From: a virus
Lineage: Duplodnaviria; Heunggongvirae; Uroviricota; Caudoviricetes
IMG/VR virus record: IMGVR_UViG_3300044796_000394
DNA length: 64,000 nucleotides
Direction: 5' to 3' (one strand)
Part shown: piece after piece, positions 27,040 through 64,000 of the stretch
Layout: each line of letters begins with the position of its first letter
Position numbering within the stretch: the first letter of the stretch is position 1
Position numbers and translations under genes: made by a program
Notes under the pieces: generated by a model
The model's input: only the letters and a program-made list of their open reading frames with translations
Database searches by the model: none
What the model was told of the DNA's origin: nothing

Positions 27040-28353
27040 ATGCAAAAGTTGACAATACATAATGATATGACTTCTATTCTTGAATTAATGGGCTGCAATT
27101 TTACCAACTTTGTTAATTACAAAGAAGGCAAAGATACAGCAGCTATCGAACCCCACGTTATCAAAGCTGATCCACCGATGAAAATTCCGGCTGGATTGAA
27201 GAGATTGGCTGAAGCCTTCAAAAAGGCCAAGGAAGTTTCTATCGGCAAGGAAATCGATACGAAAGCCGGTGGCGAAAAAGACGTTACGCTTAAAGCCAAA
27301 CGCCTCTTTATCGTAGGCGGTGCCGTACGTGATCACATGCTGAACCACACGCCAAAGAACTTTGACTTGGCTACTGATGCCCACCCAGAAGAAGTCACTA
27401 AGATTTTACAAGCTGCAAAGCCTTCTATTCAAATTGTCAAGCAAGACCCCAAAAAGGGCTGTACGACAGTTAAAGTTGACGGTGAAAGCTACGAAATCCA
27501 AACTCTCAAAAAGAAGAGCGATAATAAAGAAGAAGGCGATGTTTTCACGGCAGAACCGGGCGAAGATAGCCAAAGTCGTGATTACACAGTTAACGCCCTT
27601 TATTACGATATTTGTGCCAATCAAATCATTGACCACGTTGGAGGATTGCGTCACCTTCAAGACGGTACTGTAAAAGCCATTGGTGGTGCGGATAAACTCA
27701 AAGCTGATGGGATGACGAAATTCAAAGGCATGAGATTATTGAATACCATGCCAAACGGTAAGTTTGATGATGAAACCAAAGCGGCAATGGATAAACATAG
27801 CGGTGATGATGAAGACCTCAATCCAGAAAAAGTGAGAGAAGAATTCTTGCGAGGATTGGAACACGCCCACAGTGATGTTAAGAAGTACATCCAATCTTAT
27901 GCACAACAAGGATTGCTGGCAAAGGTGTTCCCAAAACTCCAAATTTCTAAGGATGTTCCAGATTCAATTTCCAAGAGTCGCCCCCTCGTTTTGGCTTTCT
28001 TGTTAAAAGACAACAAACCTTCCAAGTTGGTACCAGCATTGAAAGCTTTGAAGTACAGCGATAGAGAAATCAAAGATGCTGTTTACCTTATCAATCTGCT
28101 TTGGTTCGCCCCAGACTTTGTGTACGAATTCAAGAAAGAACTTTTGAATACGAGTCTCACCCGTCGCCAAATTCTGGATTGGGCTAAATTAGTTAAGCTC
28201 GATAAAGGCATGATTGAAAAATTGGTAGATTATCAACTCAGAATTAACGGTGATAATGTTCCCAAGTCGCCCGGTGAAGACGCTACTGCTTCCCGTGAGA
28301 AGATTAAGAAGATGGAAGCCGACGAATTCAAAAAAACCTTATCGGAGAAGTAA
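27040..28353 (+). CDS. CCA-adding/poly(A) polymerase-family nucleotidyltransferase homologue with degenerate active site
   Basis: FIVGGAVRD, PKNFDLAT (DxD to NxD), EDSQSRDYTVNA (RRD to SRD), ADGMTK in place of EDxxR. True start may be 27067 or 27088. Confidence 0.85.
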   Translation: MQKLTIHNDMTSILELMGCNFTNFVNYKEGKDTAAIEPHVIKADPPMKIPAGLKRLAEAFKKAKEVSIGKEIDTKAGGEKDVTLKAKRLFIVGGAVRDHMLNHTPKNFDLATDAHPEEVTKILQAAKPSIQIVKQDPKKGCTTVKVDGESYEIQTLKKKSDNKEEGDVFTAEPGEDSQSRDYTVNALYYDICANQIIDHVGGLRHLQDGTVKAIGGADKLKADGMTKFKGMRLLNTMPNGKFDDETKAAMDKHSGDDEDLNPEKVREEFLRGLEHAHSDVKKYIQSYAQQGLLAKVFPKLQISKDVPDSISKSRPLVLAFLLKDNKPSKLVPALKALKYSDREIKDAVYLINLLWFAPDFVYEFKKELLNTSLTRRQILDWAKLVKLDKGMIEKLVDYQLRINGDNVPKSPGEDATASREKIKKMEADEFKKTLSEK

Positions 28354-31456: not shown

Positions 31457-32938
31457 TTAAATCTCCGACGGCGCATCCATCACGGAAGTTTTACCGCTGC
31501 CCGTCATCGGGAACGGAATGACTTCTTTCATAGAAGTTTCGCCGCATACCAACATCGCCAACCTGTCTATTCCCAAAGCGATACCACCGTGCGGAGGCGT
31601 TCCCAAATCGAACGCTTCCAACATATGCCCAACACTCGCATTGATTTGAGCGTCGGAATATCCCATCACACGATAAGTAGCAGTTAACAATTCCCTACTG
31701 TGAGAACGAATGCTACCGCTACCGATTTCCATACCGTTACAAACCAAGTCGTACTGGTATGCTTGGATTTCGGCAATGTTTTCGCCTTTTTTGTGCCATT
31801 CGACATGTTCATCGATTGGCCGACTGAACGGGTTGTGCATGAACGTCCAGCCAGACTTACTATCTAGCTTGTCAATTTCTTCTTTGGCTTGCTTGAACAT
31901 CGGGAAGTTAACAATCCAACAGAAAGCCAAATCCCCGTTCGCCTTTTCCTTCTCGGTACGAATATCGGGTTTATCCGTGCCGTACTTGTCCATCGCCTCT
32001 TTATAGGTGATGATGGGGAAAAGTTGCGATTTGAAATTGGCCTGTTCCCGTGGCTTGCCGAACCTTTCGCCGAAGTCCCTTTCCATACTCATCGTGTACG
32101 GCCATTTTCGTCCACCCAAGGCTTCACGGGGCAACAAACACCGTTCTTCACGACACCCTGCCATACTGTTGAACAAAGCACCTTCAACGACATCAAAAAT
32201 CTCTTCCTGTTTAACGAAAGACATTTCCAAGTCTAATTGAGTGAACTCAAACCCACGGTCAGCACGTAACGCCTCATCACGGAAACATCGGGCAATTTGG
32301 TAATAGCCCTTGAACCCCGCTGTCATCAACAATTGTTTGTACTGTTGTGGACTTTGCGGCAGAGCGTAAAACTTGCCCGGTTGTAGGCGTGAAGGTACAA
32401 CAAAGTCACGAGCGCCTTCTTTGGTGGACTGCGTGAGGATTGGAGTCTCAATTTCCGTTAAGTCGCAAGACTCCAACGAAGCCCGCAAATCACGAATGAT
32501 CTTGGCACGTGTTTTAATGTTGGCTTGCATCCGTGGGCGGCGCAAGTCCAAGTACCTATAACGCAAACGAACATCTTCCGCAATGTCACGACCATCGCCA
32601 TCAATAGGCAACGGCAAATCCTTACACTTGTTAAGAATTGTCAATTTCTCAACGAACAACTCAACGGTACCAGTGGGAAGATTGGGGTTAACCATCTTCT
32701 CTGGACGTTTGACGACCTTGCCGACAAGCGATACAACGTCTTCACGGTTCAATTCCTCAAAGCCTTTACCGAGAAAGGCTTGAAGAATGTTTCCTTCATT
32801 GTCACGAATGTCAATGAAAGTAAACTTGCCGTGACTACGTTTGGCATTTACCCACCCCTTAACTTCCCATAAGTTCCCACATTCCCACAAAGCGGGATAG
32901 GGGTTCGTGAGTTTAGAGATGGCTAGTGGAAGTATCAT
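31457..32938 (-). CDS. aspS: Aspartyl-tRNA synthetase (bacterial type, GAD domain missing)
   Basis: OB fold (GWV...RSHGK..FIDIRD), RLRYRYLDLRR, ETPIL, ALPQSPQ, motif 2 ARCFRDE, YDLVCNG.EIGSGSIR, motif 3 PPHGGIALGIDR. Confidence 0.95.
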   Translation of the reverse strand: MILPLAISKLTNPYPALWECGNLWEVKGWVNAKRSHGKFTFIDIRDNEGNILQAFLGKGFEELNREDVVSLVGKVVKRPEKMVNPNLPTGTVELFVEKLTILNKCKDLPLPIDGDGRDIAEDVRLRYRYLDLRRPRMQANIKTRAKIIRDLRASLESCDLTEIETPILTQSTKEGARDFVVPSRLQPGKFYALPQSPQQYKQLLMTAGFKGYYQIARCFRDEALRADRGFEFTQLDLEMSFVKQEEIFDVVEGALFNSMAGCREERCLLPREALGGRKWPYTMSMERDFGERFGKPREQANFKSQLFPIITYKEAMDKYGTDKPDIRTEKEKANGDLAFCWIVNFPMFKQAKEEIDKLDSKSGWTFMHNPFSRPIDEHVEWHKKGENIAEIQAYQYDLVCNGMEIGSGSIRSHSRELLTATYRVMGYSDAQINASVGHMLEAFDLGTPPHGGIALGIDRLAMLVCGETSMKEVIPFPMTGSGKTSVMDAPSEI

Positions 32939-32939
32939 A

Positions 32940-33182
32940 TTAATCTGCGTTGAGGGCATCTAAACATTCCATGTGACTGTTAAATTTTTTCTTGTCGTGC
33001 TTTTTTGCCTTAGCAAGCAAAGCGGTTGCTTCAGTATCTGCTGAACCCCACGGAGTTTGTGCGGTAAATACGTTATTCATATCAATCATACCCAAAACTT
33101 GGGCATTTTTACCAGCATGAACCTGCATATAAGCAGTTGCATCATAACCTTGCCATCGACCGAAAGTGAAATCGTTAGCCAT
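32940..33182 (-). CDS. Hypothetical protein
   Basis: Start refined to MANDFTFG, coupled to the upstream gene. Confidence 0.5.
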   Translation of the reverse strand: MANDFTFGRWQGYDATAYMQVHAGKNAQVLGMIDMNNVFTAQTPWGSADTEATALLAKAKKHDKKKFNSHMECLDALNAD

Positions 33183-34022: not shown

Positions 34023-34172
34023 TTATATTTTTCCTACTACACTAATAATCAAGCTGACAAACGAATAGCCCAAAGTAAACGAGGCTATCGTTGTCGTCAA
34101 AACATCTTTACTTTTCATCAAAATGGCAATTGATCCACAAAACAAAAATGCCCAAAAAGCTAAAAGGAACAT
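34023..34172 (-). CDS. Small membrane protein (49 aa, two hydrophobic helices)
   Basis: MFLLAFWAFLFCGSIAILMKSKDVLTTTIASFTLGYSFVSLIISVVGKI; start overlaps the upstream stop. Confidence 0.6.
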   Translation of the reverse strand: MFLLAFWAFLFCGSIAILMKSKDVLTTTIASFTLGYSFVSLIISVVGKI

Positions 34173-34492
34173 TAACGTCTCCAATTTTGTGATACAGCGG
34201 GTTCCCCAACATAAGAATTAAACCATTCAATATCGTTAGGTTTGAAATATGTTCCATCCGTAGCATAAATCCTTAATTCACTGAACATTTGGGTGACGAT
34301 TTTTTCACCCTGATTCACCGGCTCATTAGATTGGGAATCTGCCTGAACGATAACAGGCGGTGGCATTTCTTGAATAACTATATTAGGCGGTTGATGGACA
34401 ACCGCAACACTTATATTTCCTCTGACGGCATGGCAAAGACCGATACCGCCAATGAGGCCGACCAACAAAATCAACACATATCTCATAGGCAA
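34172..34492 (-). CDS. Hypothetical membrane-anchored protein
   Basis: N-terminal hydrophobic helix. Confidence 0.6.
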   Translation of the reverse strand: MPMRYVLILLVGLIGGIGLCHAVRGNISVAVVHQPPNIVIQEMPPPVIVQADSQSNEPVNQGEKIVTQMFSELRIYATDGTYFKPNDIEWFNSYVGEPAVSQNWRR

Positions 34493-34499
34493 ACCCTGA

Positions 34500-35777
34500 T
34501 TATGTCAACTTGAATCCAGGCGCAAAGCATCGCAAAATTTGAATAATTGAATCGGCAGATGCAGTGTCCAAAGTAACACCTTTATTCTTGTTGTAGAATT
34601 CCATTAATCCACTCACAACCTTGTTCAACTTGAAGTTCGTTACGTTATGATCGATCTCTTTTTCCAGTTCTGGGATATTAACAGGCGGCGGTAATTTCAA
34701 ATCACTTTCCGCTTTACCCAACCAAACTTTCATGCGATTCAAAAATCGTTTCAATCCAACGATCTTGTCATCAGACCAATCCCCGCCATCAAAATAGTGT
34801 CCCAAAAACATTAAGTACATCCGGAGTTCATCCGAGTCGTAATTTTCAGGATTGACGGCATTACCTTTGGACTTGCCCATCTTGGCACCGTTACAAGTAA
34901 TCATCCCCTGATGGATTACCTTGCGGAACGGTTCCTCTTCCGGTACAATGCCCAAATCGTATAAAAACATATGAATGAAGCGAGCATAGATCAAATGCAT
35001 ACAAGCATGTTCAGCCCCGCCAACATACAAATCCACTGGACGATACGAACCCTTCGGCAAGAATTCATCCTTGCTATCAGTCAAGTACCGCAAGAAGTAA
35101 AAAGAACTATCAACGAAAGTATCTAACGTATCAGTTTCACCCTCTATCGGAATAGGACAACCCCACTTCCTTTGGCGAGATACGCACCAATCCCTCAAAT
35201 TAGCTAACCAAGCACGCTGCTGCTTAATAGTACCCTCTGGATAATCAATCTTATCCAAATTGGCAATCAAACGATCCTTATAATCAGTAATCTTGAAGTA
35301 CCATTGGTTCATGGTATTTTCAGAAACCTTGCTATCACAGCGGTCGCACTTTTCATCCTTAACTTGTTCGTTGGCCAATACGGTTTCACAAGAGGGGCAC
35401 CAATTGACAACACCGTTAGCCTTATATGCCAAACCCTTCTCGTACAACTTCATGAACAGCCACTTAGTCCACTTCTCATAATTTGCGTTACAAGTGATGA
35501 ACTTTTCTTCGTACTGAGTATTCATTCGCTCCATCTGATGACGGAAGCGTTCAATATTCAAGAAAGTTACGTCGGCAGGATCACCGCCGATTTGCCGTGC
35601 GTAGTTTTCAGCAGGCAAACCGTAGGCGTCATAACCGAAAGGTTGGTTAACTTCAATACCTTTGTACCTTAACCAACGACAATAACTATCTACGAGAGCG
35701 TAGTTGTAGTAATGCCCTAAGTGCAAACCGGCACCACTAGGATAGGGGAACATAACAACAACATTTTGATTATTCAT
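34500..35777 (-). CDS. leuS: Minimal leucyl-tRNA synthetase (425 aa)
   Basis: MFPYPSG.GLHLGH (HIGH), GYDAYGLPAEN, WCPSCETVLANEQV, LRDWCVSRQRKWG, DTLDTFVDSS, YVGGAEHA.MHL.YARF, KMGKSKGN. Confidence 0.95.
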   Translation of the reverse strand: MNNQNVVVMFPYPSGAGLHLGHYYNYALVDSYCRWLRYKGIEVNQPFGYDAYGLPAENYARQIGGDPADVTFLNIERFRHQMERMNTQYEEKFITCNANYEKWTKWLFMKLYEKGLAYKANGVVNWCPSCETVLANEQVKDEKCDRCDSKVSENTMNQWYFKITDYKDRLIANLDKIDYPEGTIKQQRAWLANLRDWCVSRQRKWGCPIPIEGETDTLDTFVDSSFYFLRYLTDSKDEFLPKGSYRPVDLYVGGAEHACMHLIYARFIHMFLYDLGIVPEEEPFRKVIHQGMITCNGAKMGKSKGNAVNPENYDSDELRMYLMFLGHYFDGGDWSDDKIVGLKRFLNRMKVWLGKAESDLKLPPPVNIPELEKEIDHNVTNFKLNKVVSGLMEFYNKNKGVTLDTASADSIIQILRCFAPGFKLT

Positions 35778-58271: not shown

Positions 58272-58345
58272 GGCCAAGTGGTGGAACGGTTATACACGTT
58301 AGTTTTAGGAACTAATTTTTGAGGGTTCGAATCCCTCCTTGGTCA
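58272..58345 (+). tRNA. tRNA-Leu(UAG) with a short 5-nt variable loop and no encoded CCA
   Basis: Acceptor GGCCAAG/CTTGGTC plus A73; D arm GTG-GAACGGTTATA-CAC; anticodon arm TTAGT-TTTAGGA-ACTAA; variable region TTTTT; T arm GAGGG-TTCGAAT-CCCTC. Confidence 0.9.
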
Positions 58346-58362
58346 CTAAACAGGAGAATTTC

Positions 58363-62840: not shown

Positions 62841-64000
62841 TTACTTCTTTCTTGGGAACAATGGTTCCAACTTTTCGCTAGTGACCTCAATCTTTCCTTC
62901 GGTATCGTATTCACGGTGAATGATTTTGTACATCTGATCCCACGTTAACTTTTCCCATTCGTCTTTCCAATTGAAAGCCTTGTATACTTTTTCAGCAGTA
63001 TCCGGCAAGTAGGGTTTGAGATAAATGGAAACGATTCGCAAGCTCATGCAACACCAACGTAGGAACGATGGTGTTGACTCAATGGTTTTGTCCCACGGTT
63101 TGTTTTCTTCGATTTGAGTATTGATGTACGTCAAAAGATTCCAAACCAATTGAAGGGCATCACGGTAGTGGTAAAAACACGTTTTTTCAATCCATGTAGA
63201 ATTTCTTGGCAGCGGCGGTGCCCATTTTTCGTTATGTGAATTTTCCGCTGTTCCAAACTTGCGAACCAGAGTGTGAACCCGGCTAAGCAGATTTCCAAGA
63301 TTGTTAGCAAGATCGGAGTTGTAAACTTCCTTAAAGTGCTGAGGATCATAATCGCCATCTGAGCCGAATGAGCATTTCGCCAAAAAGTAGTAGCGGTAAG
63401 CATCACGACCGTATTCGCTAACGATTTCTGTTGGATCGATAAACGTACCACTCTTGGAAATCTTCTCACCCTTCGTTTGGATGAATCCATGTCCAAACAC
63501 CTTGGAAGGCAGAGCGATATGTGGTTGCGCAATTGGCTGTTCGGCACCAATGTTGTACGCTGCAATCATAGCTGGCCAAAAGATACAGTGGAAGCGAGTG
63601 ATGTCTTTCCCGATGATGTGAGCGTCCGCAGGCCACCATTTGAGGAACATCTCTTCATTGTTCCCAAACCCTGCCCCGGTCAAATAATTAATGAGGGCGT
63701 CAAACCAAACATAAATTACTTGGCTTTCATCCCACGGAATCGGAATGCCCCATCCTTGATTGCGACGACTAATCGAGATGTCTTCAATCTCTTCCAAAAA
63801 GGCTTCCACTTCATTTGCTCTCACTTGCGGTCGAACATTAACCAAAAAGTTTTTGGCGACTTCTTTGAACCTCGGATCGGACAACCGGAAGAAGTAGTTT
63901 TCCTCTTCAACCTGAACTATGTCGAGGGTTTGGTGATTCGGACACTTGCCATCAACGAGGCTTTTACCTGTCTTGAATTCTTCACAACCGGCACAGTAAG
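62841..64000 (-). CDS. metG: Methionyl-tRNA synthetase (5' end beyond the window)
   Basis: Frame stays open to the window edge (YCAGCEEF...CPNH...EENYFFRLS), then DISISR...WGIPIP, YVWFDALINY, IGKDI.RFH..FWPAM, KISKS, NSDLANNLGNL.SR. Confidence 0.95.
   Translation of the reverse strand, partial: YCAGCEEFKTGKSLVDGKCPNHQTLDIVQVEEENYFFRLSDPRFKEVAKNFLVNVRPQVRANEVEAFLEEIEDISISRRNQGWGIPIPWDESQVIYVWFDALINYLTGAGFGNNEEMFLKWWPADAHIIGKDITRFHCIFWPAMIAAYNIGAEQPIAQPHIALPSKVFGHGFIQTKGEKISKSGTFIDPTEIVSEYGRDAYRYYFLAKCSFGSDGDYDPQHFKEVYNSDLANNLGNLLSRVHTLVRKFGTAENSHNEKWAPPLPRNSTWIEKTCFYHYRDALQLVWNLLTYINTQIEENKPWDKTIESTPSFLRWCCMSLRIVSIYLKPYLPDTAEKVYKAFNWKDEWEKLTWDQMYKIIHREYDTEGKIEVTSEKLEPLFPRKK

Follow-up and report, generated by a model that had tools for sequence, protein, structure and literature searches.

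A half-size leucyl-tRNA synthetase (LeuRS) is encoded in a 64,000-nucleotide stretch of phage DNA (Caudoviricetes; hereafter the window), which forms part of the 174.7-kb IMG/VR record IMGVR_UViG_3300044796_000394. LeuRS enzymes are among the largest and most modular of the aminoacyl-tRNA synthetases. The 425-residue protein, here called mini-LeuRS, keeps the whole catalytic core of such an enzyme, and we consider it probable that it activates leucine and charges tRNA-Leu without proofreading. Its open reading frame (ORF) is intact and belongs to a large phage family of bacterial-type LeuRS, on which purifying selection acts. The gene and its catalytic landmarks lie as follows.

34500..35777, minus strand: coding sequence of mini-LeuRS, 425 residues plus stop; an uninterrupted ORF with an ATG start and matches from Pfam, TIGR00396, PDB, AlphaFold and Foldseek comparisons.
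35712..35723, minus strand: HLGH, the class I ATP-binding signature, residues 19-22; H19, G21 and H22 do not vary among 44 family members or in a nine-sequence alignment with full-length LeuRS.
35337..35399, minus strand: the ZN1 module, kept, with C127, C130, C144 and C147; it aligns to the ZN1 region of Thermus thermophilus (Tth) LeuRS.
34869..34883, minus strand: KMGKS catalytic loop, residues 299-303; K299, M300 and K302 are invariant in the 44 members and in the full-length alignment.

Pfam recovers class I catalytic families only (PF00133, E = 4.4e-42; PF09334, E = 4e-33), and among NCBIfam models the bacterial LeuRS model TIGR00396 (E = 2.3e-114) ranks far above that of ValRS (3.5e-42) and also above those of IleRS and MetRS. 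Of the 843 positions of TIGR00396, about 24-221, 411-428, 484-568 and 604-715 are matched. A phmmer search of the PDB aligned the protein to Tth LeuRS (E = 3.1e-84) in four collinear blocks, beginning at Tth residue 34. An earlier note on this DNA, made from the letters alone, had reported intact LeuRS core motifs. All of them were indeed found, invariant or nearly so: FPYPSG, G.DA.G, DT.DTF.DSS, GG.EHA..HL.Y.RF and RDW.ISRQR.WG.P.P are all common to full-length LeuRS. Across the 44 aligned members, the invariant or near-invariant stretches are M9-F-P-Y-P-S, H19-x-G-H22, G48-x-D50, D196-W-x-x-S-R-Q-R-x-W-G-x-P-x-P210, T220-F-V-D-S-S-F-Y, G253-G-x-E-H-A-x-x-H-L and K299-M-x-K302. The ZN1 cysteines C127, C130 and C144 are likewise invariant and C147 is at least 90% conserved. 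The motif RDW..SRQR.WG.P.P is linked to the transfer step and to binding of the tRNA acceptor end.

The missing parts of the enzyme are marked by three internal sites and one terminal site.

35196..35201, minus strand: CP1 junction between N193 and L194, with zero linker in place of the editing domain; the alignment jumps from Tth 226 to 418, and about 200 columns are gapped against full-length relatives.
35136..35147, minus strand: ZN2/CP2 junction, I211-E214, where about 50 residues are swapped for 'EG'; the alignment jumps from Tth 436 to 487, and 52 columns are gapped against full-length relatives.
34887..34898, minus strand: TCNG, residues 294-297, standing where the leucine-specific domain would be; in the alignment Tth 578 is followed by Tth 635, and 10 residues lie between HQG and KMSKS.
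34512..34526, minus strand: FAPGF, residues 418-422, the truncation point within the anticodon-binding domain; it aligns to LAPxAPH of full-length LeuRS.

Residues 3-193 correspond to Tth 34-226 and the next block, 193-211, to Tth 418-436, so that CP1 (Tth 227-417) is absent. The ZN2/CP2 module (Tth 437-486) is absent by the same reasoning, since residues 207-294 correspond to Tth 487-578, as is the leucine-specific domain (Tth 579-634), since residues 297-349 correspond to Tth 635-691. About 31 residues of the N-terminal extension are missing as well. The linkers are collapsed in frame exactly as the earlier note had quoted them, AWLAN running into LRDW, PIPIEG into ETDTLDT and GMITCNG into AKMGKS. 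The CP1 editing family PF13603 has no Pfam match in the 425-residue protein or anywhere in the 174.7-kb record. Two cysteines, C198 and C207 (nucleotides 35155-35186, minus strand; RDWC...WGC), are specific to the family and flank both deletion junctions; at these columns the aligned full-length enzymes carry L or G and T or A. The first of them (TDWC) is also present in a second, independently reduced phage LeuRS family described below.

At the other end, the protein closes with FAPGFKLT, the stop falling five residues after FAP, and nothing continues downstream, the next ORF (34172-34492) matching no family; on this the earlier note was accurate. Beyond the FAP/LAPxAPH point, about 95 residues of full-length relatives have no counterpart: the last part of the anticodon-binding domain, then the linker, then the C-terminal domain. 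Nowhere in the 174.7-kb record is there a match to leuS_bact model positions 716-843. The same stopping point is common to members of the mini-LeuRS family and to an independent 508-residue form. The anticodon-binding family PF08264 has no Pfam match in the protein, and residues ~336-425, which follow KMSKS, are modelled by AlphaFold as four helices. With these helices left, the anticodon-binding domain is truncated, not wholly deleted; the earlier statement of a deleted C-terminal domain stands for the ~95 residues.

The leucine-specific domain has a different history. All 40 of the nearest full-length bacterial LeuRS that were sampled (from 112) share the 10-residue spacing between HQG and KMSKS and have no leucine-specific domain. 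Because these relatives lack it too, the phage lineage began from a LeuRS already without it, and its absence is ancestral and inherited, not a phage deletion. The losses specific to the phage lineage number four, namely the N-terminal extension, CP1 (without any linker), ZN2/CP2 and the C-terminal end. The earlier count of 'five clean losses' gives way to these four plus an inherited lack: the leucine-specific domain is absent as stated, but it was not deleted in the phage. The description 'urzyme-like' was also overstated, as nothing of the Rossmann core is lost, ZN1 and the CP core are kept, and so is part of the anticodon-binding domain.

The reduced architecture is widespread. In a protein search, the best 120 clusters listed had 62-78% identity to mini-LeuRS and the same architecture, almost all at 409-460 residues; they stem from numerous independent assemblies, some of them lying on contigs of 200-608 kb, and an identical protein is found on a 614-kb contig. 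The mini-LeuRS frame is intact in 19 of 21 related viral loci that were fetched (20 distinct, L019 and L020 being identical). Over 190 gene pairs, the median proportion of synonymous differences (pS) is 0.85 vs 0.26 for nonsynonymous ones (pN), and the ratio of nonsynonymous to synonymous rates (dN/dS) is 0.08-0.13 in pairs with unsaturated dS. Modelling by AlphaFold2 with the family alignment gave a confident LeuRS fold (predicted local distance difference test, pLDDT, 89.7; predicted TM-score, pTM, 0.90). Foldseek placed LeuRS structures at all of ranks 1-49, led by Mycoplasma mobile LeuRS (3ziu) with a query TM-score (TMq) of 0.91, the remainder, from Tth, E. coli and N. gonorrhoeae, scoring 0.81-0.89. 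A decaying pseudogene or an assembly collapse could draw on the two loci in which the gene carries a single frameshift (L022:10001-11241 and L026:10001-11261), which also count against an active enzyme and could be sequencing error, decay or recoding. Such an origin is nonetheless barely conceivable for an intact ORF whose architecture recurs in at least 120 independently assembled clusters, whose dN/dS is this low and whose fold is this confident, within a monophyletic family that shows a long stem followed by conservation. The earlier note's view of a selected, natural enzyme is therefore borne out by the homologues, the dN/dS and the model that it had proposed to obtain.

A separately encoded editing domain, which that note had named as a ground for doubt, was absent from all five complete relatives (97-100% complete, 452-608 kb): PF13603 scored in none of them and in every control genome. 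Each of the five encodes one mini-LeuRS matched over the same four model segments and no second LeuRS, weaker matches being other class I synthetases. Two relatives carry additions. In P0122, an intein of ~385 residues with homing-endonuclease domains sits exactly in the KMSKS loop, between KMSK and SKGN (C...HN at the intein ends), and in P0121 a methyltransferase of ~360 residues is fused to the C-terminus of mini-LeuRS.

If mini-LeuRS acts as a charging enzyme, leucine and ATP would bind an unchanged pocket to give Leu-AMP, and leucine would then be transferred to A76 of tRNA-Leu by way of the acceptor-end contacts of the core (RDW..SRQR.WG.P.P, ZN1 and the KMSKS loop), with the remnant of the anticodon-binding domain also used in charging. 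Tolerance of Ile, Met or norvaline mischarging would follow, with no hydrolytic proofreading to remove it; the enzyme may be error-prone because CP1 has been lost. A lytic phage could accept this because it needs short-term speed, not fidelity. The protein would supplement or replace host LeuRS late in infection, as proposed generally for the synthetases of huge phages, and its gene may be written for translation when charged tRNA-Leu is scarce.

Several points weigh against a charging enzyme. In T. thermophilus and E. coli LeuRS, deletion of the C-terminal domain abolished aminoacylation (PMC3561953), and the 425-residue protein lacks that domain plus the end of the anticodon-binding domain. 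Its core carries a charge of -3.5 vs +0.8 in the same columns of full-length enzymes, and so shows no overall positive gain. The segment 350-425 alone is more positive (+1.4 vs -3.1 in full-length enzymes); a compensating positive charge for the lost domains was accordingly dropped as an explanation, being absent overall and seen in these residues only. The TIGR00396 score, 383.3 bits, falls under the curated equivalog cut-off of 548.4 bits because the model is matched only in parts, and the search for an editing domain in the phage's own genome covered a record estimated to be 35% complete.

Because C-terminal deletion abolishes charging, no partner was found and there is no overall charge gain, two other readings are kept beside that of a self-sufficient charging enzyme. 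In the first, the protein would stop at leucine activation or tRNA-Leu binding, with no aminoacylation, and would serve a non-translational or regulatory role like archaeal LeuRS-I. The C-terminal loss, the missing charge gain and the score under the equivalog cut-off fit it, and there is a precedent in Sulfolobaceae LeuRS-I, which is described as binding tRNA-Leu and forming the adenylate while being unable to aminoacylate (PMC9437257). We nevertheless judge it unlikely, in view of the tRNA-Leu genes that stand beside mini-LeuRS in many relatives and of leucine codons and content in the reduced genes that fit a role in restoring Leu-tRNA. KMSKS and the motif associated with the transfer step and the acceptor end, RDW..SRQR.WG.P.P, are invariant, and M. 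mobile LeuRS is active without CP1 and the leucine-specific domain (PMC3643597).

In the second, mini-LeuRS would be the catalytic subunit of a LeuRS split in trans, with a separate phage or host protein holding the tRNA elbow. The domain for the elbow is indeed missing from the 425-residue protein, and Aquifex aeolicus LeuRS is a natural two-subunit enzyme (PMC3643597). The chances of such a split are low, however: no protein-coding neighbour is conserved within 10 kb across the 20 related loci, where LeuRS itself alone recurs and AspRS appears in one; positions ~750-843 of leuS_bact find no match in the five complete relatives; and both ORFs flanking the gene in the window match no family. 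A partner that is distant or unrelated may nonetheless exist.

A charging enzyme requires a substrate to be weighed, and the window holds one candidate.

58272..58346, plus strand: tRNA-Leu(UAG), 75 nt, type I, with a four-base variable loop and A73; possible substrate; called by ARAGORN and matched by Rfam RF00005 (61.3 bits).

This is the only tRNA in the 174.7-kb record and lies 22.5 kb from the mini-LeuRS gene; that no tRNA occurs within 10 kb of the gene in the window counts against a charging role. Among the related loci, tRNA-Leu genes occur within 10 kb in 11 of 21 (10 of 20 distinct). They make up 42 of the 164 tRNAs in that range, an enrichment tested against an assumed 12% baseline over loci that are mutually related, which likewise tempers it as support; of the 15 loci with any tRNA in that range, 6 have a tRNA-Leu as the closest one. 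Short tRNA-Leu genes (74-78 nt) account for 14 of the 42 and occur in 7 of the 20 distinct loci. In nine loci (L007, L010, L011, L016-L019, L025 and L027), ARAGORN also calls many tRNAs other than Leu, Ser and Tyr as unusually long, 82-91 nt; they include Ile, Asn, Met, Arg, His, Cys, Thr, Asp, Gln and Glu. Several calls in these loci have odd anticodons of 2 or 4 bases.

Bacterial tRNA-Leu are described as almost all long-armed, and most bacterial LeuRS are reported to charge only type II tRNA-Leu (PMC6614811); sensing of the variable arm is reported for the leucine-specific and C-terminal domains (PMC3643597; PMC3561953). These are the very domains missing here, and the sole tRNA of the record is a short-armed tRNA-Leu of a kind that recurs near the gene in relatives, so mini-LeuRS could be conceived as a dedicated synthetase forming a private pair with the phage's own type I tRNA-Leu. 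A pattern scan of IMG/VR for a tRNA-Leu-like D-arm with a short variable region found at least 126 stretches, with ~240 estimated overall; 129 scan matches comprised 102 tRNA-Leu of 74-78 nt, 15 other tRNAs and 12 without a tRNA call. The short-arm tRNA-Leu in IMG/VR mostly have anticodons UAG and UAA and canonical tRNA-Leu D-arms. Of 99 Leu-bearing loci, three were dropped as second loci on the same contigs, and 50 of the 96 distinct candidates were tested for co-occurrence with LeuRS: none of the 50 viral records, five of them at least 90% complete, encodes one. Because of this result, short-arm tRNA-Leu is a wider phage feature that is not tied to mini-LeuRS. Relatives also carry long-arm tRNA-Leu beside the gene, and the tRNA of the window is distant from it. 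An exclusive pairing was dropped on the co-occurrence count, which also leaves the earlier suggestion of specificity for a phage tRNA without support; a private pair is now a very improbable account.

The origin of the 420-residue form was traced in two trees. In the first, built from 23 mini forms with 45 full-length relatives, the former fall on one side of a branch with a Shimodaira-Hasegawa-like approximate likelihood ratio (SH-aLRT) support of 99 and a stem of 1.39, and the second tree also keeps them on one side (support 99-100 over both trees). The topology points to a single origin, after which a burst of change gave way to conservation. Full-length LeuRS nearest to the mini forms have ~800-820 residues, with ~47-50% identity over common columns, and belong, where named, to Ignavibacteriales, Patescibacteria, KSB1 and Bacillota.

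A separate reduction is found in the 735-kb uncultured phage LR756501, which encodes a 508-residue LeuRS (L162:2983-4509) with ~10 residues in place of CP1, ZN2 kept and the end ..IAPGFRM. A protein search with this form returned a second family of 45 clusters (P0241-P0285) at 61-86% identity, on contigs of up to 549 kb. Of these, 42 fall at 500-550 residues (508-547 within the family) and three have 645-647 residues with a shrunken CP1. In the second tree, a branch with support 100 parts the window family, grouped with one full-length set, from the second family, grouped with another (some Campylobacterota or Nautilia), on a tree for which the tool flagged the unusual amino-acid composition of the second family as a caveat. 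Because that branch parts two families each with its own full-length kin, reduction of LeuRS happened at least twice, independently, in phages. Like the window family, the second is found in phages and on large contigs, has lost CP1 and the C-terminal domain, ends at ..APGF/..APH and has no leucine-specific domain; unlike it, the second family derives from another bacterial lineage, retains ZN2 (most members also the N-terminal extension), no longer has the ZN1 cysteines and is almost leucine-free, as against a normal leucine content in the window family. The three longer proteins (P0277, P0280 and P0282) are leucine-free too and lack the C-terminal domain; their shrunken CP1 is matched by PF13603. 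They nest in the CP1-less clade of 540-residue forms, a placement that would need repeated CP1 loss or recombination.

How the two families encode leucine is unusual. In the window gene, the Leu codons are TTG 24, TTA 8, CTC 2, CTG 2, CTT 0 and CTA 0. Among the 77 ORFs that have 20 or more Leu codons, the UUR share of this gene, 32 of 36, is the highest (binomial p = 2e-5). A single Leu codon is dominant in 15 of 18 distinct relatives (p < 0.001 vs neighbouring genes), TTG in twelve and CTG in three, both of them G-ending; the top-codon share is as high as 19 of 19 in genes that have 31-33% G+C and lie among neighbours favouring TTA. For Leu, the share of the top codon is in excess by 0.55, against at most 0.15 for each of the other 17 amino acids, and the mini-LeuRS gene ranks first within its locus in 14 of 19 loci. 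A reading of the bias as one toward a rare codon was rejected, as TTG is the commonest Leu codon of the window's genome (36%). In the second family, 37 of 42 clusters have no leucine and the other 5 have a single one, compared with 57-78 leucines in their nearest full-length kin, and Ile and Met are raised instead; the ORF directly upstream of the 508-residue gene has ordinary Leu codon use. Leucine content in the window family is normal, with a median of 31 and 36 in the window protein. No leucine attenuator was apparent upstream of the window gene: there is no minus-strand terminator-like site upstream of the start codon, the upstream ORF stops 14 nt before the ATG, and the sole minus-strand terminator-like site (35703-35690) lies within the coding sequence. 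Promoter and terminator counts were not above those of shuffles.

Both designs, one-codon and leucine-free, would lower the dependence of LeuRS synthesis on charged tRNA-Leu, as would suit an enzyme whose task is to supply Leu-tRNA in times of shortage. A tentative extension is that the make-up of phage LeuRS genes lets leucine decoding be restarted from near nothing, the two reduced lineages each having been freed from the Leu-tRNA pool; this is conceivable, though we would not yet favour it. If true, the half-size LeuRS would be a counter-measure to a collapse of leucine charging, whether brought about by host defence, by phage shut-off of host LeuRS or by sheer demand, and would make up a self-starting module, joined in many relatives by adjacent tRNA-Leu genes.

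Among known enzymes, the closest parallel is the 637-residue M. mobile LeuRS (PDB 3ziu), which has no CP1, carries GKDG for the leucine-specific domain, is active and has been called 'minimal' (PMC3643597); B. subtilis LeuRS is also without the leucine-specific domain (PMC3643597). M. mobile LeuRS is both the best structural and the best collinear sequence match of the window protein, and the two are alike in being bacterial-type, without CP1 and with a tetrapeptide at the leucine-specific site (TCNG here; family consensus xDG). In contrast to the window protein, it is cellular and 212 residues longer, keeping a nonapeptide CP1 linker, ~40 ZN2/CP2 residues (Mm 273-312), the N-terminal extension and the full anticodon-binding and C-terminal domains, with ~90 more C-terminal residues. 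The full-length LeuRS without a leucine-specific domain are the closest sequence relatives, with the same spacing and ZN1 cysteines, whereas they retain CP1 (PF13603), ZN2, the N-terminal extension, PF08264 and the C-terminal domain. The window protein also resembles Sulfolobaceae LeuRS-I and haloarchaeal LeuRS2, which derive from LeuRS, have an editing or C-terminal region that is disrupted or divergent, and are of uncertain canonical activity; those, however, are archaeal-type, full-size cellular paralogues standing beside a canonical LeuRS (PMC9437257), whereas the window protein is bacterial-type, half-size and viral, and its complete relatives encode no second LeuRS. The LeuRS urzyme is an engineered Rossmann excerpt of ~120-130 residues that is active in vitro (PMC9026127). 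The window protein is natural and three times larger, with nothing missing from its catalytic domain, with ZN1 and with a portion of the anticodon-binding domain. The literature searched holds no account of a phage LeuRS that is half-size or leucine-free, though the supplementary tables of PMC7162821 may list such genes.

The surroundings of the gene are those of a phage, the window encoding baseplate proteins (gp25, P2_I-like and V/OB injector), endonuclease VII, D12 methyltransferases and ClpP, together with further translation-related genes.

31457-32959, minus strand: AspRS, 500 residues, reaching its NCBIfam cut-off.
62841-63884, minus strand: MetRS, running past the end of the window, with a 523-residue open frame in the record.
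27040-28353, plus strand: CCA-adding or PcnB-type (poly(A) polymerase-type) nucleotidyltransferase.

AspRS is a second trimmed synthetase in the same window: compared with ~590 residues in bacteria, ~126 insertion-domain residues (288-413 of 4rmf_A) have no counterpart, and there are ~50 extra residues at 262-314. MetRS and the CCA-adding-type enzyme add to the phage's set of translation genes. In IMG/VR, the 174.7-kb record is classed as a provirus excised from a larger contig. The entire contig may be one huge phage genome, given the identical protein on a 614-kb contig and complete relatives that are phages of 452-608 kb.

At 637 residues, the M. mobile enzyme is the smallest natural LeuRS studied so far, and the window family represents a natural 420-residue form spread over many huge phages. 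It offers a natural test of the minimum protein needed to recognize and charge tRNA-Leu and of which contacts stand in for the lost domains. The loss of proofreading bears on how much mistranslation a phage tolerates, and the compact scaffold may interest orthogonal-translation work. The concentration of leucine codons in one family and the absence of leucine from the other suggest a rule, by which viral synthetase genes may be shaped for synthesis at a time when their own product is missing.

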